A stretch of 55,995 nucleotides of DNA, counting the filler, from Squatina squatina (taxonomy: Eukaryota): the NCBI GenBank assembly GCA_031763465.1. It is 3 parts of 3 records of this genome, joined end to end, with 100 filler letters (N's around TTAATTAATTAA, not from the genome) between each part and the next. Parts side by side here need not be neighbours in the genome. Positions count along the whole stretch, not along the records: positions 30,451 to 55,995 come from JARFOE010000219.1; 2 more parts are not named here. The stretch is one strand, 5' to 3'. Position numbers and translations under genes: made by a program. This document shows, one piece after another, positions 15,470-55,176 of the stretch (position 1 is its first letter; the number at the start of each line of letters is the position of its first letter). The notes beneath the pieces are model-generated. The model searched no databases. It saw nothing but the letters and a program-made list of their open reading frames with translations, and had not been told where the DNA came from.

Positions 15470-15569
15470 NNNNNNNNNNNNNNNNNNNNNNNNNNNNNNN
15501 NNNNNNNNNNNNNTTAATTAATTAANNNNNNNNNNNNNNNNNNNNNNNNNNNNNNNNNNNNNNNNNNNN
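15470..15569. other. Artificial scaffold-joining spacer N44-TTAATTAATTAA-N44
   Basis: Exactly 100 nt with a central 12-mer giving stops in all six frames; identical structure at 30351-30450. Confidence 0.95.
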
Positions 15570-26928: not shown

Positions 26929-27082
26929 GATAGAAAAATGTCCCCATCTAGGCAACTGCTGTTCATTTCCATCGCTTTCACAATGTACATTATAGATGGA
27001 GTGACTGCAGCTGAAACACTATGTGGTGGTGAGCTGGTGGACACACTACAGTTTGTCTGTGGCGAAAGAGGATTTTACTTTA
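26929..27082 (+). CDS. IGF2: Insulin-like growth factor 2, signal peptide + B-domain exon
   Basis: Polypyrimidine-cag|[51 protein letters not shown]-a|gtaagt; [13 protein letters not shown] is the IGF2 form (IGF1 is CGAELVDALQFVC). Confidence 0.96.
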
Positions 27083-29464: not shown

Positions 29465-29634
29465 GTAGAGCAACTGGACGATCCAATAGCCGTAGACAGA
29501 ATAGAGGAATAGTAGAAGAATGTTGCTTCCGCAGCTGTGACCTGGGCCTTCTAGAACTCTACTGCGCAAAACCTGTCAAGAAAGAGCGAGATCTCTCTGG
29601 AACACCTTTTAATCTTTTACCATCAGGAAATAAG
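29465..29634 (+). CDS. IGF2: Insulin-like growth factor 2, C/A/D domains and start of E peptide
   Basis: ccag|(S)[56 protein letters not shown]|gtatgt; the phase-1 start fits the previous exon; [13 protein letters not shown] is IGF2-diagnostic. Not in the ORF track. Confidence 0.97.
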
Positions 29635-30350: not shown

Positions 30351-30450
30351 NNNNNNNNNNNNNNNNNNNNNNNNNNNNNNNNNNNNNNNNNNNNTTAATT
30401 AATTAANNNNNNNNNNNNNNNNNNNNNNNNNNNNNNNNNNNNNNNNNNNN
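30351..30450. other. Artificial scaffold-joining spacer N44-TTAATTAATTAA-N44
   Basis: Same 100-nt design as 15470-15569. Confidence 0.95.
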
Positions 30451-31740: not shown

Positions 31741-31920
31741 CCTGAGATGATAGAGAGCAACACCTGTACTTAATATATCCTCATCCACTGCTATTAAATG
31801 AGGCAACTGCGAGACAACAATCACTCCTGTTTTCCCTCTGTTTATGTCTACGTAGTATTCCTCCATGATTGCTTTTGTGTCTTTCCATCTGTCTGTCCAA
31901 TCTTTGGTGAGCTGGTCTAC
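31741..31920 (-). CDS. STARD9: STARD9/KIF16A exon, coiled coil into FHA
   Basis: tcag|VDQLTKDWTDRWKDTKAIMEEYYVDINRGKTGVIVVSQLPHLIAVDEDILSTGVALYHLR|gtaaga, 180 nt; matches STARD9 DQLTKDWT...VDINR..GV....LPHL....D.LSTGV.LYHL. Confidence 0.93.
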
Positions 31921-33800: not shown

Positions 33801-33992
33801 TTGCAATCATGATGGTTTTAGAATTCCCTCCAAGGCTGTCCTTGAGAAGCCAGGTGAGGACAGAATCACGGTAAGGGATATAATATTGCCGTCTGCTGCT
33901 CACCGAATATGCGCTGGAATGGCTTCCAGTGTCTCCTTCACTCAGTACACTATTAATACTCTGGCAGCTGCTGGACATCTGGGAATTTTGTG
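33801..33992 (-). CDS. STARD9: STARD9/KIF16A motor-domain exon
   Basis: gcag|(A)[63 protein letters not shown]|gtgagt, 192 nt. Kinesin [20 protein letters not shown]; the Ser-rich insert (SSCQS.NS...RRQ.YIPY) is STARD9-type rather than KIF16B. Confidence 0.95.
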
Positions 33993-34130
33993 CTGCATAT
34001 TTCAAGCAGCAACCTGAAGCACCACTCTCCTAAATGTAAAGTGCCTTGTCTACGGAATGTTTGTGATTTGTGAGAATGTTTGAGAGCTCATTGACACCTG
34101 TATGGCAACCTGCATATATAGCAGGCTTGA

Positions 34131-34430
34131 GCCTTGAGAAACACGCATCCCACTGGACTCGGGTCTCGAGAAACACGCATCCCACTGGACACGAGCCTCA
34201 AGAAATACGCATCGCACTGGACTCAAGTCTCCAGAAGCACACATCCCACTGGACTCGAGTCTCGAGAAACACACATCCCACCGGACTCGAGTCTCGAGAA
34301 ACACACATCTCACTGGACTCGAGTCTCCAGAAGCACACATCCCACTGGACTCGAGCCTCGAGAAACACTCATCGCACTGGACACGAGCCTCGAGAAACAC
34401 TCATCGCACTGGACTCGAGCCTCCAGATAC
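34131..34430. repeat. ~32-bp minisatellite in STARD9 intron
   Basis: About nine units of gagaaacac(a/g)catc(c/g)cactggactcgag(t/c)ctc, running into a gap. Confidence 0.9.
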
Positions 34431-36864: not shown

Positions 36865-38877
36865 CTAGTACAGGATTCAGAAAACAAAAGACAGTTTTAA
36901 AGCCAATTCCACCAACTGAATGCACGTTCTAAATTCTATGCAATTACCTTTTTGTGAGGTCTGTGCCAATTCTATTCATTATTTTACTGTATTAGATGAT
37001 TGTCAATTATATTTTTCATGGACTAGAAAANNNNNNNNNNNNNNNNNNNNNNNNNNNNNNNNNNNNNNNNNNNNNNNNNNNNNNNNNNNNNNNNNNNNNN
37101 NNNNNNNNNNNNNNNNNNNNNNNNNNNNNNGCTGGGGCTTTAGGCTCAAAAGGCAGCATCAGATCATCTCAGGTCGAAAGGTTTCGGGTTTTCTTCAAGA
37201 TCACATGCCCAGCCTGTGTGCCCTCTTCGTAGGCCCCATTTTGTCTCCCCTCAACGATTCCCTGGATCACACACACAACCTGCAGCTGGGAGGACGAGGA
37301 AAACAAATTGCTCCCAGGACACCTCCGACACCTGGGCCTCCATGAGACACAGAGGGGAATCTCTTTTTGAGTTTATCTTGAACCTGTGTCCTTCTGTTGG
37401 TACTTCCCCAGAGAACGGCAGAGAAAGGAGTCTCAATGAAAATGGGCTGGAGGGGAGTCAGTAAATCAAACTCATGCCCTTCTCTGTAGTTTTACAAGGT
37501 GTCGTGCCAATCTGAAAAGATCAGATCTTTGTTTTAAAAAAATCAAACACTCGAAGAAACCTCAACAAAAAATCAGCAACTCGTATGATTTATCTTTCAC
37601 ATTTTCCTCATTTATTAGAAAATGGTACTTTAATAAATAGCTTAATAAAAATGTGTACAAAATGTTCATTTGTTTAGGGTAAGAGATTTAATACTATACA
37701 GCCAACCAAACAATGAATTATTCTGTTCACCCACTATTGACAGTATCGACAATCCCATGTGTTTCGAGTAAGGCCTCTGAACTGGCNNNNNNNNNNNNNN
37801 NNNNNNNNNNNNNNNNNNNNNNNNNNNNNNNNNNNNNNNNNNNNNNNNNNNNNNNNNNNNNNNNNNNNNNNNNNNNNNNNNNNNNNNNNNNNNNNNNNNN
37901 NNNNNNNNNNNNNNNNNNNNNNNNNNNNNNNNNNNNNNNNNNNNNNNNNNNNNNNNNNNNNNNNNNNNNNNNNNNNNNNNNNNNNNNNNNNNNNNNNNNN
38001 NNNNNNNNNNNNNNNNNNNNNNNNNNNNNNNNNNNNNNNNNNNNNNNNNNNNNNNNNNNNNNNNNNNNNNNNNNNNNNNNNNNNNNNNNNNNNNNNNNNN
38101 NNNNNNNNNNNNNNNNNNNNNNNNNNNNNNNNNNNNNNNNNNNNNNNNNNNNNNNNNNNNNNNNNNNNNNNNNNNNNNNNNNNNNNNNNNNNNNNNNNNN
38201 NNNNNNNNNNNNNNNNNNNNNNNNNNNNNNNNNNNNNNNNNNNNNNNNNNNNNNNNNNNNNNNNNNNNNNNNNNNNNNNNNNNNNNNNNNNNNNNNNNNN
38301 NNNNNNNNNNNNNNNNNNNNNNNNNNNNNNNNNNNNNNNNNNNNNNNNNNNNNNNNNNNNNNNNNNNNNNNNNNNNNNNNNNNNNNNNNNNNNNNNNNNN
38401 NNNNNNNNNNNNNNNNNNNNNNNNNNNNNNNNNNNNNNNNNNNNNNNNNNNNNNNNNNNNNNNNNNNNNNNNNNNNNNNNNNNNNNNNNNNNNNNNNNNN
38501 NNNNNNNNNNNNNNNNNNNNNNNCTACTATCGATCTCCATTATTGATAAATTACAGCTCTATTGACTATCTTTAGTGGGGAGGGGTGTGGGGGGAGGGGT
38601 GAACAAACCGCATCCCCGAGTAATGTTCAGCTACGCTGACCTTTGAACCCCATTCCTCACCATAGCAGACAAGTAATGACTATTGGCTATGAAGCTGAAC
38701 ACTAATGAAGGTGGGTTATTAGACAAAGGTTATTGACCTTTAAACACTGTCAAATCACACTCAGAATGTTAACTCAAGACCTGGTTAATCCAGTAATGTC
38801 CAATACAGGGCACCAACCGAGCAATGTAGACCAACTGCATAATCTGAGCAACAATGATTCATTTATTTTTCCCTCAG

Positions 38878-40397: not shown

Positions 40398-40839
40398 AAG
40401 TAGCAGGCAGCGGCTCTTCTTGCAGGGGAGGAGCTTACGGGAATCCTGGTCAGGTAGAGAGGTGGTGCAAGGCCTCATCAAAATTTTTCTGATATTCTAC
40501 ACATAATTTTGGTGGTGAATTCATCCAGACTCTTTTACACAACAACTCATCCCGTAAACCTATGACTAACTCTTTCACCAACCTGTTCTGATCAACTGCT
40601 CTGATTACTAATTATGATTACGGTACATATTAAAGCTGTTTTTGTTGTTTTTGTTAAATGTTTTGCCAACATCTTTCCACTTGTTTAAGAAGCCACAACA
40701 CAAATGATTTGGATAGTCTGGGTGCCCCACTTCCAAAGCAAATTAATGCACTGTGAAGGGTTCAGAGAAAGTGGCTACGATGAGGGTCAAACGTGAGATT
40801 CATAGAACTGAACTGCTATTCATTAGAGGAAAGAATTAG

Positions 40840-41070
40840 AGTGGGGAGAGAGAGAGAGAGAGCACGACGCAGGCGTGGGGAGAGAGAGAGCCCGACCCAG
40901 GCGTGGGGAGAGAGAGAGAGAACGACGCAGGCGTGGGGAGAGAGAGAGAGAGAGAGCCCGACCCAGGCGTGGGGAGAGAGAGAGAGACAGAGAGAGAGCA
41001 CGACGCAGGCGTGGGGAGAGAGCGGGAGCACGACGCAGGCGTGGGGAGACAGAGGGAGCACGACGCAGGC
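40840..41070. repeat. Compound minisatellite: (GA)n plus cacgacgcaggcgtgggg
   Basis: About seven or eight units of (a/c)cgac(g/c)caggcgtgggg separated by variable (ga)n. Confidence 0.9.
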
Positions 41071-43794
41071 TCCGTCTGACCAGTTCCAACGTGAACTGGC
41101 GACCGAGGTCCTATTCACGCCCTCGGGGTCACCGCCCCCATTCCGAGGCCATTGCCAACCCTTTAATCCCAGGTGAGGGCCAATCAACATTGAGCGGTGA
41201 CAGAGAATTGGAAACAAGGAACCAGACAACACTTCTTAACTCACAGCTCCTTGTTCTCTTCCATCTGCTGTGGAAATGCACCTGAGGTCCTCAAAGTAAC
41301 AGAACCCAGTTCAATAAAACTTGCACGCTTTTTGAAATTGTTCGTGTTTTATGCTCGTTACATTTAACAGTCAAAAAAACCCTGATAATGCAAGTAAGGT
41401 TAGGCAGCAAGTGACTTGGGTCTACACTGTCAATATATTACTTGATTAAAATTATAATACTTTAAGGTCATTTTTATTTTTGAACACACTTTCACCAAGA
41501 AGCCAGTTTGTTCCTGCATGTTTTTTGCAATTGGTAGTTTCCTCAGCTTAAAATGTTTAGCGGCAATTATAAAAATGGATCAACGTTTGGATTTCAACTC
41601 CAATTCAAGTAAGATAAAAGTGCTTTCCTTTTCAAACTGTGCTTGAAAAAGTGCCAATTTATTCGAGTTCATTACATTGCAAAATACTGTGACAAAGATT
41701 CTTTCACGTTAAAAGCCAAGAGGGTTTATTTTAGAGAGGTGTTTCTGTGGTAATGCTGAACATGGATTGAGAAGTTTAGAACGTGAAATTTATCAAACTG
41801 TATGAAAGCAAACACTTTGTGTTTTATTCTGAAGTGACATTATCACACAGATTAAAATAAAAATCACCTATCCCTGAAAAAGTGCAAGACAATTCTGAGT
41901 TTCAAAAAAAAAATAACTCTGAAATTAAATATAAATCAGTGGAAGAAATTCATTAAAAGAAATATATATTTTAAAAATAAGTTGTGTTTTTGCAACAATC
42001 CATGTTAAGATGGACTTTTAGCCTTTGTCACTGACCAACTCTAATATCTGTACACTCAGTCTTCCACAGCACAGACCTTCCTTCTGTTCACACAGGCTCT
42101 TGGAACACATTTCAAAATGATTCAAGCACAACAACTTCATAAATACTGCGTACGCACCCAACCCCACTTTCAACACGGAAACAGGTCCCGCCAATTTGTG
42201 AAAAATCTTCATTTGTTTGAAAGAAAAAACCCTGCAAAATCAACGTCAACTTGCATCTTTTGATGGAAAAAGAAAATAATCAGTACAATTGTGAAAATCG
42301 TGGACATCAGTGCCAACCAACACATGATCTAGGACATGTGGGAACATGCTAAAGGCAGTGAAAAACACTAGGGCTACAATGACCGGGGCTCAATATTGCC
42401 TCAAAATAGTGACGAGTCAGCCAGCGACTTAATTAGGAAAAAAGCTCCCCGTGTAACCCAGTCATCTCTTTGCGCAACACTTAATGGAGGATTATCGAGG
42501 AGTGAAACTATCTGATAGGTCTGCAAATCTTCAGAGTGTTAATAAATAATGTTATTGTACGACACTAGTTGTTTAGATGTCAACCACTTTCTTTCTACGC
42601 AACTGGTATTGTACAATAACCTGTGTAGGCACTGTCCAAGTAACTATACAGCACTTCAGCACTTGCATCTGTAACTTTCTACACTTAGGTCACAAAATGC
42701 ACGCTAATTTTGCTTCTAAATTAAGCCTCATTTCCATAAAACCAGTGAGCTGCGGAGACCAATCATGTGCCTCGATGCAGTTGACCCATCATAGACTTCA
42801 CAAAATTGGTCAGAGCACTAGATCATCCTGTGCATTTACAAAAAGCAGGTAGACCTCAAACTTTGAATATAAAATGTGTGGCAAAATTCTTTCAACTTCA
42901 CCTTAATGATCTGCCCTGAAATTATAATGAGTTAAGCTGCCACACAAATCATCCTTGTGGCCTCTCCAGGTAAGTTTTCCAACGTTGGATTTTAGGGGAA
43001 TCATGGGATAGAAACATAGAAAATAAGTGCAGGAGAAGGCCATTCGGCACTTCGAGCCTGCACCGCCATTCAACGCGATCATGGCTGATCTTTCAACTCA
43101 ATACCCCGTACCTGCTTTCTCTCCATACCCCCTGATCCCCCTTGCCGTAAGGGCCACATCTAACTCCCTTTTAATATGGGGATCGGGCGGGGAAGTGGCG
43201 TTGAGGTTGAAAATCAGCCGTGATCTTATTGAATGGTGGAGTGGGCTCGAAGGGCCTGCTCCTAATCCATATGTTCTTAATGTACAGTTCCAGTCAGTTT
43301 CACACTAGGAACTCATATTCATTAGCACATGGGTGGACATTACCCAGACTCAATTCATTGTGAACTTTTACAACCAAAAGTTATCCCATCAGCTTGAGCT
43401 GGATTTGAAACTTGAATGTAAAGGTGAAAGTACAGCATTCATAACTTGGTTAACTATGGACATTTAAGTGGTTTGATAATCCAGTGTAACTGTTATTCCT
43501 GATCAAACTCATTTAGTTAACAGGAAGACTTTTTTTCAGAAAATGTTCTGGTCTTTTGAGGAATTGGTGATATCTTGCATATCAGACAAATATATTTTCA
43601 TAATGTCCAAATTGTGAGAGTATTCTGACTAGATCAGAGGAGTATCCAACTTGCATAATGGATGAAGGCCAGCAGATATGTGACAAAAGATGGCTTGATG
43701 ATGTGTGCACATTAAAACTGTAAAAGTCATTAAATAATGGGCTTACATTAACATGTGGTAGGGTTGGAGGAGGCTCGTGTGGAGCATAAACACT

Positions 43795-44022: not shown

Positions 44023-44183
44023 NNNNNNNNNNNNNNNNNNNNNNNNNNNNNNNNNNNNNNNNNNNNNNNNNNNNNNNNNNNNNNNNNNNNNNNNNNNNNN
44101 NNNNNNNNNNNNNNNNNNNNNNTAATTTTGCTTCTAAATTAAGCCTCATTTCCAGCTTATTCTTCCCATCTTTCAATGTTTCC

Positions 44184-45358
44184 CTAGTCGCTTAAAATAC
44201 TGTTTACTGCTTCTTCCAAAGTGGAGGTCCCCGCTCCAACAAGGCCACCGTCATGTTCTGGTTCCATGAAATCCCCCAAGGAAGCCATCGGGGAGAACTG
44301 AGGGATGTCCAGTTCTGCTGAATCGGGAGGCTCGGTTGTGGACTGCTCCTCCTCAGAAGTCTGGAGCCTCTGTAGGTCCAGAATGCTGTTGATGGCACTC
44401 TGTAGGTGTTCGTTGAGCGTGCTGTCCTGGGGGCTGTCGCTGGAGAAACTGGCATTGTCCACAGAGTCAGACTTGCGACGTTTGGGCTGCGGGAGCGGCA
44501 GCTCCCAGCGCAGGTCCTCTGCTGAGCCAACCTTCATCAGACCCTGCGTGAGCGCGTCTTCCACCTCCGCAAGTTCCTTCATAAGATTGCTTGCGCTGTC
44601 ATCGATCTTCCCTCCCGGCAGTCCCTCAGCTTTGTCCTGCATCAAGTTCTGGAAGCCATTGTCCGTAGTCCTGNNNNNNNNNNNNNNNNNNNNNNNNNNN
44701 NNNNNNNNNNNNNNNNNNNNNNNNNNNNNNNNNNNGTTGTCTTCATGTTCAATCGATCTTTGAAACTCAGAACTGTTCTGTGGGAGGGGTATTTTACTTT
44801 GGTCGAGTACCAAACTTGGAGTGCAACTCACAGGACAATTCCTTTCACATTTTGCAAGATTGGTAAGATAGCCCCTTTCTTCCGACGCACCCCTGGGGTC
44901 CAAATGTTCCAGTTGACGTTTCTCAGCTGGAGGAGGGATGGTGCGATTCAGATCTCCGTTGCTTTGGCCAGTGGGGGTCGCGGCGAGGGTGCTGGGGTGT
45001 CTGGTTCCTGAGCTCTGTGGGACTGGCGGGGAAGAGAGCTGATCGAACGCTGTGTTGTGGACAACCTTGCTGTAACCCGCCTCCTGCTTTATCTTCAACT
45101 TGAGACCGCCTCTGCTACTGGCAACATAAGTCTTCAGAGGCTTGGGCCGACTTGGGAGGGCCTCCATCTCCACATCTCCCGTCGGGGAGGCTGTTGCCTG
45201 GGTGACAGAGGGCGAACTCCTGGCCTGTTTGATAACCAGCTTGGTGGCGGTGATCTGTGTTGAACTTTGAACAAGCTCGTTGGGAGCTACAAGGGGGAAA
45301 GAAGGGGTTGGCGGAGTACTGGTAATTCTAGGCTTGAAAACTGATGAGATATATGCAT
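44184..45358 (-). CDS. GLTSCR1-family (BICRA-like) protein, last coding exon
   Basis: tttttag|(D)AYISS...ATKLVIK...LKTY..SSRGGLKLKIKQEAGYSKVVHNTAFD...KRRKSDSVDNASFSSDSPQDSTLNEHLQSAINSILDLQ...LEEAVNSILSD*. These motifs match the recalled BICRA/GLTSCR1 C-terminus. Frame is kept across the internal N-run. Symbol withheld because orthology (BICRA versus a paralog) is uncertain. Confidence 0.92.
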
Positions 45359-45429
45359 CTAAAAACAAACCAAACATACATTGAGCACTCTACAGCCACA
45401 TTACGTTCAAAGTAAGTGCATTTAAAACT

Positions 45430-45690
45430 GAACAACAACTTGCATTTATATAGAGCCTTCAACTTAGTAAAACTTCCCAAGGTGCCTCACATGAGTGTAA
45501 TCAGACAATATTTGACACATAGGGAGATATAAGAGGTAGGTTTTAAGGGGTGTCTTAACGGAGGAGAGAGAGATACAGGTGGAGAGGTTTAAGGAGGGAA
45601 TTCCAGAGGTTAGGGTCTAGGCAGCTGAAAGCATGGACGCCAATGTTGGAGCGATTAAAATAGGGGATGCGCAAGAGACCAGAATTGGTC
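45430..45690 (-). mobile_element. L2 LINE 3' end
   Basis: aacaacaacttgcatttatatag...ggagagagag...agggaattccagag, the reverse complement of 7847-8053. Confidence 0.8.
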
Positions 45691-45703
45691 TTTGGAAGAT
45701 ATT

Positions 45704-46452
45704 GGCCGGACTATCAATGTCCATAATCAGTACTTCTCTGAAACCAACAGCAACTTCTGGATTCAGCGCACTTGCAGATAAGCGTGGAAATCCAAAAGTT
45801 GCTGTCAGTGATTCTACGCTTCTCCACAGGCTGGGCTGGTGAATTCCCCAGAGCCGGCAATCAATTCAAATCACTGAACTGACAAAAACGTCCAATTTTA
45901 TACTGGAATACCGCTGTTAAAAGCCCCCGAAAAAGTTAAATCTTGTTGAAGGAGGTGTAACTTGGTTTATAACGGTGTATTGACTGATAACAACCGTTCT
46001 GGCCCTGAAAAACTAATTTCATATTTGTGGAATGTCAAATTTTTACATTACGATAAAAATTCCATGCTTTTTAATAATTTTTAAAAAGTTTATTTGATAT
46101 TTCGGCTTCTACGTTAATCCCATGTGTGTGTCCCAATCTTTATTTTGCTCTCTGTAAAATGAAGGAAAATCAGTGCATTTTACTTCCTGGTTTGTTGTCT
46201 GTGAGAACTCTTCAGTGTGATTGGCTGCGTAGCCAGCTTGATGACATCACTGTTGCTGGACGCTGGAGATCCCCGAGACTTGGCGTCAGATTCAAATTAA
46301 CGCCGAGAGAGGTGAAATCTATGCCGCAGAGATTGCTGGATAAACAGGGTAACCTAGAAGTTGATGGCTAGATCTTTGTGCACAGCTTTCTTCAAGGTCA
46401 GAGCTCAGTGGTGAGCGCCATCACTTTGTTTGCTGACCGTAAAATCCAGGCC
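45704..46452. mobile_element. Probable non-autonomous DNA transposon
   Basis: Ends ggccggac...atccaggcc; internal hairpin acagcaacttctggatt...aatccaaaagttgctgt (about 45747-45805); no coding capacity; TSD not clear. Confidence 0.45.
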
Positions 46453-46924
46453 GATGTTTATCTTCTAGTTGTACACATTGTCTCCCTTGAATTATCAAGC
46501 CAGCCCATTTGCAGAAACACCCTTCTATACCATAGTTTATTTCACTGTTTTCATATATATACCTCATAGATCATATCATGTATAAATATCAAATAATGTG
46601 TTTCTCCCACATTAATAAATAGCAGACATTCTACATACAAACTAAGTTGTTCGTTGAGTCACAAGACACTGGTCCTAGATCTCTGCAGTAGCTGTGCAGT
46701 TTAGTCAGCCCACGCCATATCTGTGGCCTTGTCCTCGATTTTCTCCTCCTTTCTTCTGTTATGATTGTCAGCAGTGGAGTTCTGCTGATTTACTGTGAGG
46801 CACAGGAACTCTTATTGTCTTTCTTCCATTTACTGCTTTTTTTTTTACTTTAGTAGCTTAATTATTCTCTCAATGATATTTTAATTTTCTTTTTCTGTGT
46901 TGTTTGCGCTTAAACACAAAGGAG

Positions 46925-47500
46925 TGGAAGTTGTATACAGCTCTGCTAAGACCACATCTGGAGTACTGCATTCATTTCTGGGCACCGCACCTCAGGAAGG
47001 ATATATTGGCTTTGGAGTGGATGCAGTGCAGATTCACTAGAATGATACCGGGACTTAAATGGTTAAATTATAAGGAAAGGTTACACAGACTAGGCTTGTG
47101 TTCCCTTGAGTATAGAAGATTAAAGGGGTCATCTAATTGAGGTGTTTAAAATGATTAACTGATTTGACAGGGTAGATAGAAAGAAACTATTTTCTCTGGT
47201 GGGGAGTTCAGAACAAGTGGGTATAACCTTAATATTAGAGCTAGGCCATTAAAGGGTAATGTCAGGAAGCACTCCTTCACAAAGGACAAGTGGTAATCTG
47301 GAACTCTCTTTCCCCCAAAATGCCGTTGAAGCTAAGTCAATTGAAAATTAAAAAAAGCAGATTAATAGATTTTTGTTAGGTAAGGGCATTAAGGGATATG
47401 GAACCAAGGTGGGTAAATGGAGTTAAGATACAGATTGTCCATGATTGAATTGGATGGCGGGGCAGGCTTGAGGGCCTAAATGGCCTACTCCCGTTCCCAA
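46925..47500 (+). mobile_element. CR1 LINE 3' fragment
   Basis: LYTALLRPHLEYCIHFWAPHLRKDILALEWMQCRFTRMIPGLKWLNYKERLHRLGLCSLEYRRLKG followed by the 3' UTR ending in tggcctactcccgttcc. Confidence 0.92.
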
Positions 47501-48108
47501 ATTTGTCCTGTTGATTTTTGTCAGATGTAGATCAGATGTAATTATTAAGCCAAACAGCTGGAGGCTCAGAACTGAGGTCTGTATCATAGAAACATAGAAA
47601 ATAGGAGCAGGAGTAGGCCATTCAGCCCTTCCAGCCTGCTCCGCTATTCANNNNNNNNNNNNNNNNNNNNNNNNNNNNNNNNNNNNNNNNNNNNNNNNNN
47701 NNNNNNNNNNNNNNNNNNNNNNNNNNNNNNNNNNNNNNNNNNNNNNNNNNGCCTTCGTTACCTAACCCTTAATATTTTTGCGCAACAAAAATTGATCAAA
47801 CTCACTTTAGAAATTTTCAATTGCCCCGCAGCCCAGCTTTTTGGCAGGTGGGGGGTGGGGGGGGGAGCTGTGGCGGAGGAAAGTTCCACATTTCCACTAC
47901 GCTTTGCGTGAAGAAGTTTTTCCTGACATCACCCCTAATTTTAATTAGATCACGCCTTGGGTCCATATCTCTTCATACCCTTGCCTAACAAACAGGTAAA
48001 CAAAAGTGCGACCGAGATAAACGTGGCTTCTGCAGGGACGAGTTAGGAAAGCTGAACTTGGGGTGAAGCCTGCTGTGAGGCGAAGGTGCTTCCCAGTCGA
48101 TTCCTTAC

Positions 48109-48245
48109 CTGCACTGTAGACTGCAGCTGTGGCTGGACAAGTGGTTTTAAAGTGAATTGTCTGAACCTTCCCTTGCCATTGTGGAGACGCTGTCCTTGCA
48201 GAGCTTGCGCGTGACAACACACTGAGTCACCCACAGCAGTCGAGT
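48109..48245 (-). CDS. Candidate internal exon of the BICRA-like gene
   Basis: tcttccaccag|..STAVGDSVCCHAQALQGQRLHNGKGRFRQFTLKPLVQPQLQSTVQ|gtaagg; good splice sites and one open frame; lies between the two large exons, but no homology recognised. Confidence 0.45.
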
Positions 48246-48574
48246 CTGGTGGAAGACAGAATTAAAACCAATTGTCCGTTTGCACTGTACTTAAAGAGGA
48301 ACTAAAGACTGGTGGGCAGAAATCCATTCCTTTCCCAGCATTGACTAGTGCTTCTCTCCTCCTGATCAATGTGAATGCTTCTTGGTTACTTCTTATTCCT
48401 TTGGTCAGAGTATTCCATTAATCGGTGCCACGCTTACCTCAAACAATTATGCAATCTAGTTCCTGTGTAAATTANNNNNNNNNNNNNNNNNNNNNNNNNN
48501 NNNNNNNNNNNNNNNNNNNNNNNNNNNNNNNNNNNNNNNNNNNNNNNNNNNNNNNNNNNNNNNNNNNNNNNNNN

Positions 48575-48960
48575 CTGCTATTTCTAGGGCCACTTCCTTA
48601 AGTAACCTGGGAAACATTTTCTCCACATCTACCCCATCAAACCCCTTCATAATTTTAAAGACCTCAATCAGGTCACCCCTCAACCTTCTCTCTTCTACAG
48701 AAAAGAGCCCCAGCCTGATCAGTCTTTCATGATAGGTATAAGCTCTCAGTTCTGATATATTTGTAAACATGGTTATCATCCATAGAACAGGAATAGGCCA
48801 TTCAGCCCCTCCAGGCTGTCCCACCATTTAATGAGGTCATGGTTGATCTGTACCCGACCTCCATTTACCTGCCCTTGATCCCCTTACCTAACAAAAATCC
48901 ATCAGTCTCAGTCTTCAAATTTCCAATGGACGCCCCTGCATCCACGGCCTTTTGGGCGAG
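48575..48960 (-). mobile_element. CR1 LINE fragments
   Basis: YHERLIRLGLFSVEERRLRGDLIEVFKIMKGFDGVDVEKMF plus a 3' tail at about 48780. Confidence 0.85.
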
Positions 48961-49181
48961 AATGGACTGTGACAAATACTCCATTTTGTAACTTACTAAA
49001 TCAGAAATGCAATTGGCCACATCTGGATTCCCAATTAGCCATATGTGGCTGGAGGCCAACAGATTAGACACCACTGAAGGTTGAAAATATTGCATTCCCG
49101 TAGCATCTGTCATCTTTACGGGCATAAAACATTACCAGGACTAGATCAATGTACCTCCTCCTACAGTATCAAGGGACTGAC

Positions 49182-50815
49182 CTGTTGGAAAAGCAAAAGC
49201 TGGTCAGCATTGAGTGCTGATCCTACCCCTTGCTGGTTGATGAGCTTGTCGGTGTTTTCAGCCGAAGTGTTGCTTGGTTGTGAGGCTGCAACGGATTGCG
49301 GAGTAGGCTGCTGAACTTCCACCAGTTGGGACTGAGATTGGGCCTGCATGTGTGGATGGCACTGAGGTGGAGTGTGTGTCTGCTGCAGCCCAAGAGCTGA
49401 CGTTAACTCTGCATCAGTGGAAGGCTGTGGCTGCACAATACTGCTCTTGGAGGTGCTCAACTGCTGAATGTTCATGGCTTGTCCCAAAGGGCCAGTGTTG
49501 TTGAGCACAGTTATCTGATTTGGCAGTGAGACACCCTGTACAACAGTTTGACCCGGCTGTACTACCTTGCGTTGACCAGACGGGTGCGACTGTGAAGCAA
49601 AACCAGCGCCTAGCTGGGCGGGCATCTGAAATAGTGTAGAGGGAGCCAGCTGTCCAGGCTGCAGTTGCAGAGGTCCAGATCAGATATGCGCTGTTCCGTG
49701 GCCGACTGTCAGCGGAGTGTNNNNNNNTGCAAAAACCTGGCCGAAGTTGGTCTGGCTGGTAATCAACGGTCCCGCCACATTTTGGGTGGTCAGGATCTGT
49801 GCAGGCAAGGCCTGGCTGGTGACTAATTGGCCAGATGGTCCTGGACGCCCCATAACGTGAGCCGTGGCTGGCTGTCCAGGGAGACTCTGAGCTGCAGCAC
49901 TTTGCGCAGACAAAATAGTTCCCGTGTGAAGTGCAGAAAGTTGCTGGGGCACGCTGACTGCTGATGCATTGGCCAACTGCCCTGGTAAAATAAATTGGCT
50001 TTGACCTGGGATCACAGCCTGAGGAACTGACTGAGGCTGGATCACGATACTACTCCCCTGGTTCAGAACTTGAACACTGACCGGTTTGCCCACATTTGGC
50101 TGCATTTGTTGTGGTGGTTGTTTGATCAGGTTGGTGGCAATAGTCTGAGCGACTGCCGGGCCTTGCGTTGATAGTAGGACGTTCTGACCTGGGGCTCCTG
50201 CTACAAATGTCAAGTTCTGCTGAGCTTTCTGTTGCTGGAGTGCGGCTTCTGTCTGAATCTTTAATGCTGTCTGAAGAGCAGAGGAGTTTGGGCTAAATGA
50301 AGGCTTTGGGCTTATCTGGACAAGTTTGGGTTGGATATTCACACGGTGCTTTGGCTGAATTGGAGTGGGAGTCCTCTGAATTATCACATTTTGGGTCGAT
50401 ACTGGGGTGTGAACCACCTGGTTACTAATGGACGGTCTAACAGTGACCTGTTGCGTCGAGTGAGAGAGATTTGGATTGGCAAAGAGAGAATTTCCATTTA
50501 GATTGGCGCTCGCGATATTCTTTTGGAACGGTGAAGAAATTGAAGAGCTTAGGGTCACCTGATGCTCTGAAGGTGAGGCAGACAGGTAACTCCCTGAAGG
50601 AAGAGCGGTCATCTGTGGTGACAGACCGGGTTTGGCGATCAATTGTTGATGATGCTGACCAATGGACATCATGGCAGTTTGACCACCATGCTGGTCGACC
50701 ATCTGAATCTGTCCAATCCCGGAGGTTCTAGGGCTGCCATTGGACACGGTCTGAATACTTGCTATCGGCTGTATCGCGACACTGTTCAGTCCGACCTGTT
50801 GAATCAAACGTTGCA
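49182..50815 (-). CDS. GLTSCR1-family (BICRA-like) protein, large Q/P/S-rich exon (5' end lost in gap; in-frame TGA at 49680-49682)
   Basis: ORFs 49680-50807 and 49161-49625 share a frame. Motifs QQVGLNSVAIQPI..NGSP, NVIIQRTPTPIQPK..PKLVQISPKP, QNLTF, KPVSVQVLNQGSSIVI, PGQSQFILPG and LFQMP align with recalled BICRA. Donor CAG|gtcagt at 49182. Confidence 0.9.
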
Positions 50816-50915
50816 NNNNNNNNNNNNNNNNNNNNNNNNNNNNNNNNNNNNNNNNNNNNNNNNNNNNNNNNNNNNNNNNNNNNNNNNNNNNNNNNNNNNN
50901 NNNNNNNNNNNNNNN

Positions 50916-51047
50916 ACCTCCAACAGTGCAGCGGAGGCTCCCTCAGTACTGCACTGCAGTGTCGACCTGGATTATGTCTTCAAGTCTCTGGAGTGGGGCT
51001 TGAACCCAAAGCCTTATGACTGCTATCACTGAGCCACAGCTGACACC
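50916..51047 (-). mobile_element. Deu-domain SINE 5' fragment
   Basis: ctccctcagtactgcactg...caagtctctggagtggggcttgaaccca...cactgagccac is the reverse complement of the SINE head. Confidence 0.75.
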
Positions 51048-51392
51048 GAGGCCTATTCTCCCTGTTCAGTGAGTTCTGCTGGCACACCTATGTGTCAGGA
51101 TGTCAGGTGAGGTCAGAACCAGACTCATTCCCCCAAGCTGGATAACCTGGCAGACACTCACTGCCAAAATTCATTCGTACATAGAAAATGGCCATTGGAG
51201 TGAAATATTGGATGGGGACTGAAAACCATGGTGCCATGTGCAGTTACTGCATTCATGAGGGGAGGGGAGGGAGTTGAAAATATGAGGTACAAAAACACAT
51301 CATCCAAGACAGTAATTCACTGTGGGGTTCATATTTCACTCAAAACTATTACATGTTCAATTTCTATAATTCATGTCATCATTTACTGCCTG

Positions 51393-51700
51393 ACAACAAT
51401 GTGCATTTATATAGCGCCTAACTTTGTAAAACATCTCAAGGGCTTCACAGGAGCATTATGGACAAAATTTGACCGAGTGCAGAAGGGCATGAGGAGTCCA
51501 AAAGCTTGGTGAATGAGGTCGGTTTTAAGAAGCATCTCACAAGAGGAGAGGTAGAGGCACGGAGAGTTTCAGAGTGGGTATTTCAGAGCTGAGGGTCTAC
51601 ACAGCTGAAGGCATGGCCGCCAATGGTGGGGCGAAGGGAGTGGGGGATGTACAAGAGGTCAGGGTTGCAGGAGCGCAGAGATCTCGGAGGGTTGTAGAGC
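51393..51700 (-). mobile_element. L2 LINE 3' end
   Basis: acaacaatgtgcatttatatagcgcc...ctgaaggcatggccgccaatggtg...agatctcggagggttgtag, the same family as 16640-17233. Confidence 0.8.
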
Positions 51701-52349
51701 TGGGCATTGCAAATGGCATTATCCTAAATTATTGAAACAATGGTAAGACCTGTATAGCAAACGGACACCATTGATTCGGGATCCTTCAGCCGATGGGCTG
51801 TTTTCTCTTATGCAAAAAGGGCAGACTGTGGACGTCGAACTGACTATAAGCGAGAAAATATATTACAAGTATATTTCGTGTCTGCAGAGTGTGTCTTTTT
51901 CGACCCTTTTCTGTTAACACATTTCTGGATGTTATTTTCTCTTGCACTGTGGACGCTATCCGTCACATCCAATAAATCCGGAATGTGCATAATAAAAAAA
52001 AGAGGGGGCTTAATTATGTAAATCTAAACAGCAGTAAAAGTTTAACCCAATTAGGAGGAAAGTAATGACGGGGACGATTTATACATTCTAGCTATCGTCG
52101 ATTCCCAACTCCTCCCTCCCCCTCCAATCCATCACTAGCCAAAGAGAGGCCAGACTGAAATAATCTGACCTATTTGGGGGGCAACAAAACATTAAAACCC
52201 GAACGGTTCCCACATACCATCCTATACAAAGGCGAGCTCGCAGTTCCGAGTCTCTCCAGTCCAATGTATCGAGCGAAGGGGGGATACTTACAGCGGACTG
52301 GGCTACGTAATCCGTCTCAATCTGATCGAAGAGGAGCCACACTGAATAC

Positions 52350-52440
52350 CTTGTCCTGCCGACATCTTGTTACTTTGTTCAGGCGGGGAGAGAGAGAAAA
52401 AAAAGGATATGTAGTCTTTGCAAGGGGGGCAATTTTCTTT
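52350..52440 (-). promoter_or_regulatory. Candidate promoter / first exon of the BICRA-like gene
   Basis: Minus strand: GACTACATATCC (ACTACA-type motif, 52405-52416), pyrimidine run, GC box (52382-52388), AACAAGATGTCGGC (YY1-like) and donor AAG|gtattc at 52350; local CpG enrichment at 52070-52390. Confidence 0.4.
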
Positions 52441-53913
52441 TAGATATTTTAGAATGCATACATTAATTTAATAAATCCACTCAGCAGTTTCACAACACAT
52501 TGTTTATACGTATTTTTATTTTTAAAAATCAAAAAATTAGGGTGTGGTCTCATTGTAAAGGTTACACAGCTCATTAAATACTGACAGTATTTTCGCCACC
52601 GTATTATTTCACACACCAATTTTTAGAGAGAATTAACCTGGCGCTGGTTTATTTCCAACGATCAAAGCACTGATTTGGTGCTTGCTGTTAATATCTGGGG
52701 GGGGGGGGGGGAGTTAAAGGGCCCATCGCTCCCCTTTAATACAACACCCCGGTTAACAGTAAGGGGTCTCGGGCTTTTATATANNNNNNNNNNNNNNNNN
52801 NNNNNNNNNNNNNNNNNNNNNNNNNNNNNNNNNNNNNNNNNNNNNNNNNNNNNNNNNNNNNNNNNNNNNNNNNNNNNNNNNNNNNNNNNNNNNNNNNNNN
52901 NNNNNNNNNNNNNNNNNNNNNNNNNNNNNNNNNNNNNNNNNNNNNNNNNNNNNNNNNNNNNNNNNNNNNNNNNNNNNNNNNNNNNNNNNNNNNNNNNNNN
53001 NNNNNNNNNNNNNNNNNNNNNNNNNNNNNNNNNNNNNNNNNNNNNNNNNNNNNNNNNNNNNNNNNNNNNNNNNNNNNNNNNNNNNNNNNNNNNNNNNNNN
53101 NNNNNNNNNNNNNNNNNNNNNNNNNNNNNNNNNNNNNNNNNNNNNNNNNNNNNNNNNNNNNNNNGTAGGTCTCAGCAAATAATCTCTTCAACAACAAAAA
53201 AACCCACCCAAAGGTCTGGAGAGAAACACCTCCTCCCCTCACACTCTGCCAGCCAGGGAGGTGTCACTACACAAAGAAGTTTTTAAAGTCAGGAGACACG
53301 CGCCTTTTGTTGGGGGTTTGTTTCGTTTATTGGTTATTCCCTCCATGATCTGGTTACAAAATCTGACCTGCCTGCAGAGGCTGATACATGTTTATTACAA
53401 AATGATACATTTTCTGTTGCTGCAATGATTCCAATTCTGAGGGATCTGCGGGAGTTCACACAGGGACAAAATATATAGCAACTGCTCCCAAAGAAATGAT
53501 ACTTTCCTTTGTTGTATTGATTTGTTTGTCGGTTCTAGGTGTAGCTTTTTAAAATATATATTTATATCATATCACAGGGAAGAGAGAGAGAAGAATTGTA
53601 ACACTTTAAAAAAGGGACTCACCGCCAATGTGGTTTGCCTTGTCAACGGGGTTTCTTCGCCATCACTTCAGGGGCTGCAAGGGGAGGGGGAGGGGGACAA
53701 GAGTCAAAACACAAGGAGATCAGCTGCTGGCGTCTTGAACTGCAGCCTCCACACACCAGGCAGAAAGGAGATTTATGCAAAGACTCCAATAATTAGCCTC
53801 TGCCGCTTAAAAGNNNNNNNNNNNNNNNNNNNNNNNNNNNNNNNNNNNNNNNNNNNNNNNNNNNNNNNNNNNNNNNNNNNNNNNNNNNNNNNNNNNNNNN
53901 NNNNNNNNNNNNN

Positions 53914-54130
53914 GGGATCGGGAAGGATGAGTAGCATTGACTGGGATTGGGAAAGGTGTGCAGCGGCTGGGATCGGGAAGGGTGGGTAGCATTGACTGGG
54001 ATTGGGAAAGGTGAGTAGCGGCTGGGATCGGGAAGGGTGGGTAGCATTGACTGGGATTGGGAAAGGTGTGCAGCGGCTGGGATCGGGAAGGATGGGTAGC
54101 ATTGACTGGGATTGGAAAAGGTGGGTAGCC
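53914..54130. repeat. 55-bp G-rich minisatellite
   Basis: Units start at 53914, 53969, 54024 and 54079: gggatcgggaagggtgggtagcattgactgggattgggaaaggtgtgcagcggct; begins at a gap edge. Confidence 0.92.
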
Positions 54131-54299
54131 GTGAATGGCGATCAAGGTCGGTCATGGTCGCAGTTAGTGGGGTCAGGGGTGATGTGCTGGCCAGAAGCGG
54201 CCCACGTGATTTGAGTGTGGAGCTGAGAAAGGGAATCTTGTAACTCCTGACTCCACATTCAGGTAAATATATTCAATACTTACCTTGTTGATTGCATGT

Positions 54300-54460
54300 C
54301 TGCTTCATTGGGACCACTTCTGGAGCAGGTGGGACTTGTACAAGCTGGACAAGTTACACCTCAGCAGGACCGGGACCAATATCCTCGCAGGGGAATTTGC
54401 TAGTACTGTTGGGGCAGGTTTAAGCTAACTTGGCAGGGTGAAGGGAACCTGAGAGGATTC
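54300..54460 (+). mobile_element. CR1 LINE ORF1 (SGNH/GDSL esterase-like) C-terminal fragment
   Basis: HWDHFWSRWDLYKLDKLHLSRTGTNILAGEFA resembles the CR1 ORF1 esterase block (W..F......Y..DGLHL...GT..LA..F); CR1 3' tail follows at 54588-54790. Confidence 0.75.
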
Positions 54461-55077
54461 AGAAGGGAGGGAAACAAAGCTAGAAGTNNNNNNNNNNNNN
54501 NNNNNNNNNNNNNNNNNNNNNNNNNNNNNNNNNNNNNNNNNNNNNNNNNNNNNNNNNNNNNNNNNNNNNNNNNNNNNNNNNNNNNNNCACAGGAAGCTGT
54601 TGAGGCCAGTTCATTAGCTATATTCAAAAGGGAGTTAGATGTGGCCCTTACGGCTAGGGGGATCGGGGGTATGGAGAGAAAGCAGGTACGGGGTACTGAG
54701 TTGAAAGATCAGCCATGATCATGTTGAATGGTGGTGCAGGTTCGAAGGGCCTAATGGCCTACTCCTGCACCTATTTTCTATGTTTCTATGAATGCTACTT
54801 CATACCCATTTCTATATCCAGAGGGCTCAAGTACAAATCTTATCAGAAACTGGAATTTAAACTGGTGAATTTTGGCTGGCAGGTTTTACCACTTCTTGAC
54901 GGCATTTATGTAGCATGTTTCCCAAGGGGGGGAAAATCCCAGTCAGAAGTATCCCTTCCACCTATCAGTTATCAGACCAGCAGCAATTATTGAAGGGTCC
55001 AGTGCCTGCCTGCACGGACTGAACAGTAAGGGTTGAGATTTATACTAATGTATTTTTTAAACCTTAAAATCACTAAC

Positions 55078-55176
55078 CTTTGAACAAACAAAGTCAACTA
55101 GTGTTGCTTCTTCTTCACCAATGTATTCTATTATTTTTTTATTGATCCATGGTCTAATGCGGCGGTCCATCAAGTT
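55078..55176 (-). CDS. RBM25: RNA-binding protein 25, PWI-domain exon
   Basis: ttttctttttacag|NLMDRRIRPWINKKIIEYIGEEEATLVDFVCSK|gttagt, 99 nt, nearly identical to the recalled RBM25 PWI domain. Not in the ORF track. Confidence 0.96.

Follow-up and report, generated by a model that had tools for sequence, protein, structure and literature searches.

Family exons and position of the gene in the tree

The window analysed here is a stretch of 55,995 nucleotides (filler included) from the shark Squatina squatina (assembly GCA_031763465.1). It contains part of a gene of the GLTSCR1 family, to which the human proteins BICRA (GLTSCR1) and BICRAL (GLTSCR1L) of the non-canonical BAF (ncBAF) chromatin-remodelling complex belong. 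Two large coding exons of this gene were identified on the minus strand. The big Q/S/P-rich exon is represented by its 3′ part (49182..50815; 544 codons read, with a GT donor after 49182), its 5′ end being lost in a 100-N gap. The last coding exon (44184..45358) comprises 391 codons followed by TAG; its acceptor is present, and the frame is kept across an internal 62-N gap.

Both exons most resemble a set of fish proteins called here the third gene or third paralog. The big exon is 89% identical to Pristiophorus and 86% to the Heptranchias third paralog, compared with 45% to Heptranchias BICRA and 30% to catshark BICRAL (27-31% for BICRAL overall). The last coding exon shares 80% identity with the third paralogs of Pristiophorus and Heptranchias and 40% with Heptranchias BICRA. 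Against BICRA, the two exons reach E values of 7e-120 and 5e-61, and against BICRAL 4e-52 and 4e-12. Homology outside the GLTSCR1 domain, in the big low-complexity exon and in blocks of the last exon, places the gene in the family. Together, the exons cover 940 of the 1374 residues of the Heptranchias ortholog. Nothing in the window matches its residues 1-166 or 720-987, the latter stretch containing the GLTSCR1 domain (880-980), and the corresponding exons are therefore presumably hidden in the 100-N gaps.

A search with the last 162 residues matched 264 proteins (120 listed). Among the matches listed, the best 13 are chondrichthyan “BICRA-like” entries (72-89% identity), followed by the coelacanth (62%) and two skates (54-57%); a second Heptranchias protein (1883 aa), encoded on a 17.1 Mb chromosome, reaches 52%, level with bird and reptile BICRA. 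The GLTSCR1-domain search (400 matches, 120 listed) returned, among those listed, BICRAL of shark, coelacanth and amniotes. In a search of 50% representatives (267 matches, 150 listed), a ray-finned group was found among the matches listed, with Erpetoichthys, Acipenser, Amia, Paramormyrops, Denticeps, Esox, Gymnodraco and Nothobranchius; the entries for Paramormyrops (a cluster) and Nothobranchius (a protein) bear the name Si:ch211-168d23.3. The third gene and BICRA lie on different chromosomes of the same species in Heptranchias (87.3 and 17.1 Mb) and Rhinoraja (62.1 and 15.6 Mb), as do the third gene and BICRAL in Mustelus, Narcine and Scyliorhinus. The label “S. canicula” on tree rows was supplied by us, as the source gives the genus Scyliorhinus only.

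The main tree was built from 28 rows hand-picked for taxon spread, using 542 of 2941 columns under LG+C20. It is divided in three clades: BICRAL (100/100), BICRA (100/100) and a third clade (99/98). The latter is made of chondrichthyans (100/99), among them a chimaera, and of the coelacanth together with the ray-finned si:ch211-168d23.3 proteins (97/93). The window gene is placed among these chondrichthyans (94% to Pristiophorus), outside the BICRA clade and outside the BICRAL clade, which has shark members of its own. Each clade contains both cartilaginous and bony vertebrates, and both duplications therefore took place before chondrichthyans and osteichthyans separated. Forcing the chondrichthyan third genes together with shark BICRA (p-AU 7e-52) or with bony BICRA (p-AU 1e-49) was rejected by the approximately unbiased (AU) test. 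The expectation of the original prediction that the gene would form a clade of its own is borne out by this result, and the translocated true BICRA that it had kept as an option is not. We are highly confident that the window gene is a distinct, ancient GLTSCR1-family paralog, neither BICRA nor BICRAL. Among the chondrichthyan third genes, those of skates and carpet sharks (P0017, P0018, P0204, P0207) show a higher rate of evolution than those of other sharks.

In total, 417 proteins were collected, 367 of which passed a score-margin rule and were called as BICRA (267), BICRAL (36) or third gene (64). Two of these third calls are the window's own; one, P0289, was dropped as an invertebrate-like protein, and the rest are either named fishes or best match a fish third-clade protein. 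A search with coelacanth residues 1-480 (847 matches, 120 listed) gave, among the matches listed, the coelacanth and chondrichthyan third genes, directly followed by tetrapod BICRA. A fast-evolving tetrapod copy could escape this search, because the ray-finned orthologs are missing from the list as well; the representative search should have revealed such a copy. No lungfish protein was identified in any match list. Frog and chicken are without the third gene in the available rows of the orthogroup OG_5505 (PMC10972751), and the loss therefore looks tetrapod-wide rather than mammalian. Apparently, the gene was kept in cartilaginous fishes, ray-finned fishes and the coelacanth and lost in tetrapods. 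The proposed retention in cartilaginous fishes thus holds, and its limits, both to these fishes and to a loss in mammals, have to be widened.

GLTSCR1 domain, reading frame and putative ncBAF role

The third protein and BICRA have in common a near-identical N-terminal motif, the long Q/S/P-rich exon and blocks of the last exon, and the GLTSCR1 domains of the two Heptranchias proteins are 66% identical. They differ in that the Heptranchias third protein is ~500 residues shorter (1374 vs 1883), groups in a separate clade and ends in an acidic “EAVNSIL”-type motif, which BICRA does not have. BICRAL carries the same kind of C-terminal motif, and its domain has a mean identity of 53% to that of the third protein. 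Since invertebrate outgroups also possess this motif, it is ancestral.

Shark and coelacanth orthologs of the third clade score 120-121 bits on PF15249 (cutoff 28; profile positions 1-101/102), near the 126 bits of shark BICRA. The GLTSCR1 domain is thus present in the third-clade orthologs, that of the window animal itself being out of sight. All 22 third-clade proteins examined align over the entire domain and keep 23-28 of the 30 columns that are invariant among 20 BICRA and BICRAL domains. This number amounts to 23-28 in 12 chondrichthyans, 28 in the coelacanth, 23-27 in nine ray-finned fishes and 21-27 in three invertebrate outgroups; skate third-gene domains retain only 23-24. No PDB chain matched the Heptranchias third ortholog. 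Full-length database gene models of the third gene are present in many species.

According to the accessible parts of two studies, the binding of human GLTSCR1 and of GLTSCR1L to BAF is mutually exclusive (10.1101/445148; PMC7607862). The GLTSCR1L domain is reported there as necessary and sufficient, as it pulls down BAF alone and its deletion abolishes binding (10.1101/445148). By analogy, the GLTSCR1 (GiBAF) domain, about 100 residues long, would dock the third protein into the SMARCD1/BRD9 core, where it would replace BICRA or BICRAL, with one paralog per complex as for human GLTSCR1L. BRD9 would read acetylated histones, and the long Q/S/P-rich regions, which are the most divergent between the paralogs, would give paralog-specific contacts. 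On these grounds, the third protein probably assembles into ncBAF as an interchangeable subunit.

The gene might instead be a true third ohnolog that has lost its function as an ncBAF subunit, at any rate in the fast-evolving ray-finned fishes. The stem branch of the ray-finned group measures 0.46, compared with 0.07 for the chondrichthyan stem, which hints at a changed role in ray-finned fishes. Their domains average only 47% identity to BICRA and to BICRAL, and all 22 third-clade domains have another residue in place of a Gln found in every one of the 20 BICRA and BICRAL domains. Since the domain is whole in every one of these 22 proteins, keeps most of the invariant columns and reaches near-BICRA Pfam scores in shark and coelacanth, we regard such a loss of the ncBAF role as unlikely.

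The big exon contains one in-frame TGA (49680..49682, minus strand), at codon 378 of the 544 read and 39 bases from a 7-N gap. This gap is spanned by a contig of a related organism. All contigs compared with the window come from sequencing runs of relatives (best share of words 0.12). At position 49681 of the plus strand, an A, giving Leu, is found in four of four compared runs. The sites where all four relatives differ from the window are transversions in 4/4 cases within 49681-49714, against 5/21 elsewhere, these 25 difference sites coming from 40 of 217 rows. The TGA at 49682-49680 is probably a read error at the contig edge. A lineage that is real, with the gene turned into a pseudogene in this shark by the TGA, would also explain the stop, and the compared runs belong to other species. 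This is improbable given the position of the stop beside the gap, the transversions gathered on the gap side, a frame that is free of frameshifts over 935 codons and the short terminal branch (0.023).

Gene order and origin of the third copy

The window consists of three pieces, split by TTAA spacers at 15514-15525 and 30395-30406. The piece at 30451-55995 (JARFOE010000219.1) is built of 17 contigs (0.55-4 kb) with 16 N-gaps, 12 of them of exactly 100 N. Along its minus strand, an RBM25 exon is followed by the two large GLTSCR1-family exons and two kinesin-3 exons. The upstream neighbour (55078..55176, minus) is the PWI-domain exon of RBM25 (Pfam PWI, E 2.1e-06; AG/GT ends); 31 of 32 aligned residues are identical to the RBM25 chain of PDB 3v53 (E 1.5e-16). 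It is the single RBM25 exon within the window, where the remaining ones were not seen. On the other side lie a kinesin-3 motor exon (33801..33978, minus; PF00225, E 1.7e-11), with KIF13B, KIF1 and KIF14 as top PDB matches, and a post-motor exon (31741..31920, minus; AG/GT ends), which matches ESM Atlas clusters with PF16183 Kinesin_assoc (scores 0.91-0.95). We infer that both belong to STARD9, a name taken from the gene order in the bamboo shark and not from a named STARD9 sequence. For the human map, we take BICRA to lie at 19q13 beside EHD2, BICRAL at 6p21 near UBR2/TTBK1, RBM25 at 14q24, adjoining PSEN1, and STARD9 at 15q15 near TTBK2/UBR1/EHD4.

The original prediction described RBM25, a BICRA-like gene and STARD9 as co-oriented, with no spacer between them and in one assembly piece. 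The common minus strand was found again, with both TTAA spacers outside the group; the single piece is one of scaffolding, given its many contigs and gaps. Four gaps separate the RBM25 exon from the big exon, and none of the listed contigs of related organisms bridges them; a contig bridging the gaps between the family gene and the kinesin exons is also absent among those listed. The link of RBM25 to the family gene rests on scaffolding. The gaps of 100 N suggest that the scaffold was possibly ordered on a related genome, in which case the contig order would be that genome's own. Part of the order is backed by a 3880-base contig (run X5, organism B), which joins 41129-42713 directly to 44150-45458; the 32 bases shared by 44123-44154 and 42705-42736 and the shark model ends matched at 37786-37730, both described below, bear on the order as well.

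Gene positions in other vertebrates were taken as published from the available rows of supplementary files 5 and 6 of PMC10972751 and not recomputed. PSEN1 serves as a stand-in for RBM25 in these species, as RBM25 is without a row in the stored part of file 6. The 14 rows of OG_5505 comprise one each in lamprey and hagfish, three in the bamboo shark (chr9, chr10 and chr41), four in gar at three loci (bicral on LG16, si:ch211-168d23.3 on LG7 and bicra on LG2) and two in Xenopus, as well as BICRAL and two unplaced fragments in chicken. Three family loci, as the original prediction anticipated, are thus present in bamboo shark and gar, where the third gene and BICRAL again occupy different chromosomes.

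On bamboo shark chr10, PSEN1 (90.04 Mb) is followed by the family gene Chipu0016856 (90.52), STARD9 (90.63-90.89), CDAN1 (90.91) and TTBK2 (91.08). Chipu0016856 (chiPu_0016856) shares a 90% cluster with the third-clade row P0204, which ties the table and the tree together. In gar, LG7 carries PSEN1 (19.31), si:ch211-168d23.3 (19.35), cdan1 (19.85) and ttbk2 (19.89). Xenopus chr8 retains ttbk2, cdan1, stard9 and psen1 (85.5-85.9 Mb), with no family row there among those available; three model numbers between stard9 and psen1 fall outside these rows. In shark, gar, frog and chicken alike, PSEN1 and STARD9 are part of a single ancestral block, which contradicts the proposal of two separate paralogous regions for RBM25 and STARD9.

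BICRA adjoins ehd2 in gar and Xenopus, a separate locus that had been foreseen. The family gene on bamboo shark chr41 is 0.15 Mb from a ZNF541-family gene, and one chicken family fragment is on the same scaffold as chicken ZNF541 (PMC10972751). The bamboo shark chr9 and chr41 genes were identified by their neighbours and row order, not by sequence. The third gene is accordingly found in the STARD9 block on a macrochromosome, in contrast to BICRA, near EHD2/ZNF541 on small chromosomes; in gar, Xenopus and bamboo shark, the EHD2/ZNF541 neighbourhood is occupied by another family gene. Like the third gene, the single cyclostome BICRA, present as one copy per species, has STARD9 as a neighbour: hagfish BICRA (EA11654) ends 7 kb ahead of STARD9, and lamprey BICRA (chrm17) lies 0.16 Mb from a STARD9-family gene (PMC10972751). 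The STARD9-side position therefore looks ancestral for vertebrates.

In the same rows, CLGv is CLGA1 for all 12 gnathostome members of OG_5505. The neighbours of the third gene are labelled CLGA1 alpha1, and TTBK1, on gar LG16 and chicken chr3 (the BICRAL chromosomes), is alpha2 (PMC10972751). The duplication predates the chondrichthyan/osteichthyan split and, according to this table, the copies are located on paralogous CLGA1 segments; it is very likely that the third gene arose by whole-genome duplication (first or second round, 1R/2R). One pre-vertebrate gene would have stood beside STARD9, and after the duplications three of the four paralogous segments would still have carried a copy. The one beside STARD9 would have retained its old neighbour and would then have been deleted in the lineage leading to tetrapods.

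An ancient third paralog would also result if a single gene or a segment, rather than the genome, had been duplicated before the jawed vertebrates split. The 1R status of the family rows is “nd”, their ancestral group being CLGB against CLGA1 for the vertebrate segments (PMC10972751), and the tree does not settle in which order the three clades branched. Still, the location of all gnathostome rows on CLGA1-derived segments, the alpha1 neighbours of the third gene against the alpha2 TTBK1 that shares its chromosomes with BICRAL, and the EHD family, which flanks BICRA and likewise maps to CLGA1 (PMC10972751), make a small-scale event rather improbable. That the gene is a true shark BICRA relocated beside STARD9, or a shark-only BICRA duplicate, is hardly credible: BICRA is the closer of the two human-type paralogs (mean domain identity 62% vs 53%; big exon 45% vs 30%), yet Heptranchias and Rhinoraja each have a further gene placed with bony BICRA (100/100), both placements fail the AU tests, the third gene also occurs in coelacanth and ray-finned fishes, its STARD9-side position is common to hagfish and lamprey, and three loci exist in bamboo shark and gar (PMC10972751).

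Taken as a whole, the window gene is in all likelihood a third jawed-vertebrate GLTSCR1-family gene, a probable 1R/2R ohnolog apparently lost in tetrapods and a predicted alternative defining subunit of ncBAF. A number of points weigh against this interpretation. The big exon of the assembly contains the TGA described above, and the assembled window lacks the exons of the GLTSCR1 domain, so that the animal's own domain is not seen. No single species supplied all three paralogs as sequences. The two AU rejections are probably one test, because their log-likelihood loss is identical (161.43). Support for BICRA as the sister of the third clade is 75/62, and BICRAL in that position is not rejected (p 0.21). 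The outgroups of the tree, Lingula and an unnamed representative, are long, and no cyclostome or amphioxus sequence was identified for it. A quick tree of 46 rows gave no placement to the ray-finned group, and a FastTree of 115 domain columns set it outside all other vertebrate rows; this domain-only tree did not resolve the clades and served only to place unnamed rows. The “nd” and CLGB labels count here as well. As invertebrate outgroups keep 21-27 of the 30 columns, conservation of the domain is no proof of an ncBAF function. Finally, protein collections and a single table, rather than genome scans, are the basis for the absence from tetrapods.

Several other features were observed along the minus strand of the gene. 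A conserved segment at 48109..48245, with AG/GT ends and covered by contigs of related organisms, is a possible optional exon; its match to a Narcine model (82% over 33 aa) is in a frame that differs from the open one, and 48245-48109 was rejected as a coding exon, since the model uses another frame. Conserved sequence past the stop codon (41129..42713, minus), continuous with the last exon in the contig of organism B, is probably 3′ untranslated region (UTR). This contig skips 42714-44149 (~1.4 kb), parts of which are matched by many repeat contigs, and 32 bases at the end of the last-exon contig (44123-44154) overlap or recur at 42705-42736. With these 32 bases duplicated at the gap edge, the skipped segment of the probable 3′ UTR may be an allelic insertion, an insertion specific to the lineage or a bubble of the assembly. 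Further downstream, 37727..37786 (minus) is conserved and corresponds to the terminal exon in three shark models of the gene. Its 19-residue match at 37786-37730, 6.4 kb downstream in the window, is identical to the model ends at 19/19 residues in Pristiophorus, 18/19 in Carcharodon and 18/19 in Cetorhinus. The contig at 37131-37786, whose first 57 bases are this exon, is conserved in organisms A and B and may represent an alternative 3′ end of the third gene or a piece of the STARD9 5′ region.

The non-coding segment 51757-52697, located between the RBM25 exon and the big exon, is matched by one organism B contig with 97 differences and could serve either RBM25 or the third family gene as a UTR or as a regulatory region. 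Short tandem-repeat arrays at 34050-34430, 40830-41070 and 53914-54140 are a source of spurious open frames. A second, unlinked piece carries two insulin-like growth factor exons (26929-27082 and 29465-29634, plus strand), with IGF-II as top PDB match (E 6e-15) and IGF-I behind, and looks ordinary.

Annotation and significance of the third paralog

The third gene is already in public annotation, as “BICRA-like”, BICRA or si:ch211-168d23.3, and stands unremarked in the available part of the PMC10972751 orthogroup table. The si:ch211-168d23.3 proteins and the RefSeq “BICRA-like” models of sharks and coelacanth are orthologs of the window gene, as they share its clade and, on gar LG7 (PMC10972751), the proximity to PSEN1. 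Those of ray-finned fishes evolve fast and are shorter, mostly 1000-1250 aa. The plain product name BICRA is given to RefSeq third-gene models of Acipenser, Amia, Esox, Nothobranchius and Gymnodraco, and such names on fish third genes hide the paralogy.

Our literature searches, with most subscription journals outside their coverage, returned no paper describing a third paralog, and the clone name si:ch211-168d23.3 gave 0 matches. In the accessible part of a survey, GLTSCR1/1L is treated across eukaryotes without a named third vertebrate copy (PMC9170682). Supplement searches found nothing in PMC7269912 or in the available part of PMC13450315; the ohnolog web database of the latter may already list the trio. 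Ohnologs retained in fishes and lost in tetrapods are a common pattern, which limits the surprise of this finding.

A three-way choice of the ncBAF subunit would concern fishes, which make up about half of vertebrate species. The defining subunit is treated as a two-paralog switch in the accessible part of PMC7607862, and a third paralog would make it a three-way switch in fishes. The three GLTSCR1 domains would offer a natural comparison for locating the surface that docks into the complex. More tentatively, and with less than even confidence on our side, early jawed vertebrates may have possessed three exclusive ncBAF variants. The STARD9-linked one would have been lost by deletion in stem tetrapods, once the coelacanth lineage had branched off, would have remained slow-evolving in sharks and would have been rapidly remodelled in ray-finned fishes, with targets of its own. 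If this is true, an ncBAF type that has gone unrecognised is present in zebrafish and other fish models, where it could mask or confound the effects of bicra and bicral mutants. Because the RefSeq names hide the gene and compensation is possible, the third gene matters for fish models of BICRA-related disorders, in whose mutants it could compensate.

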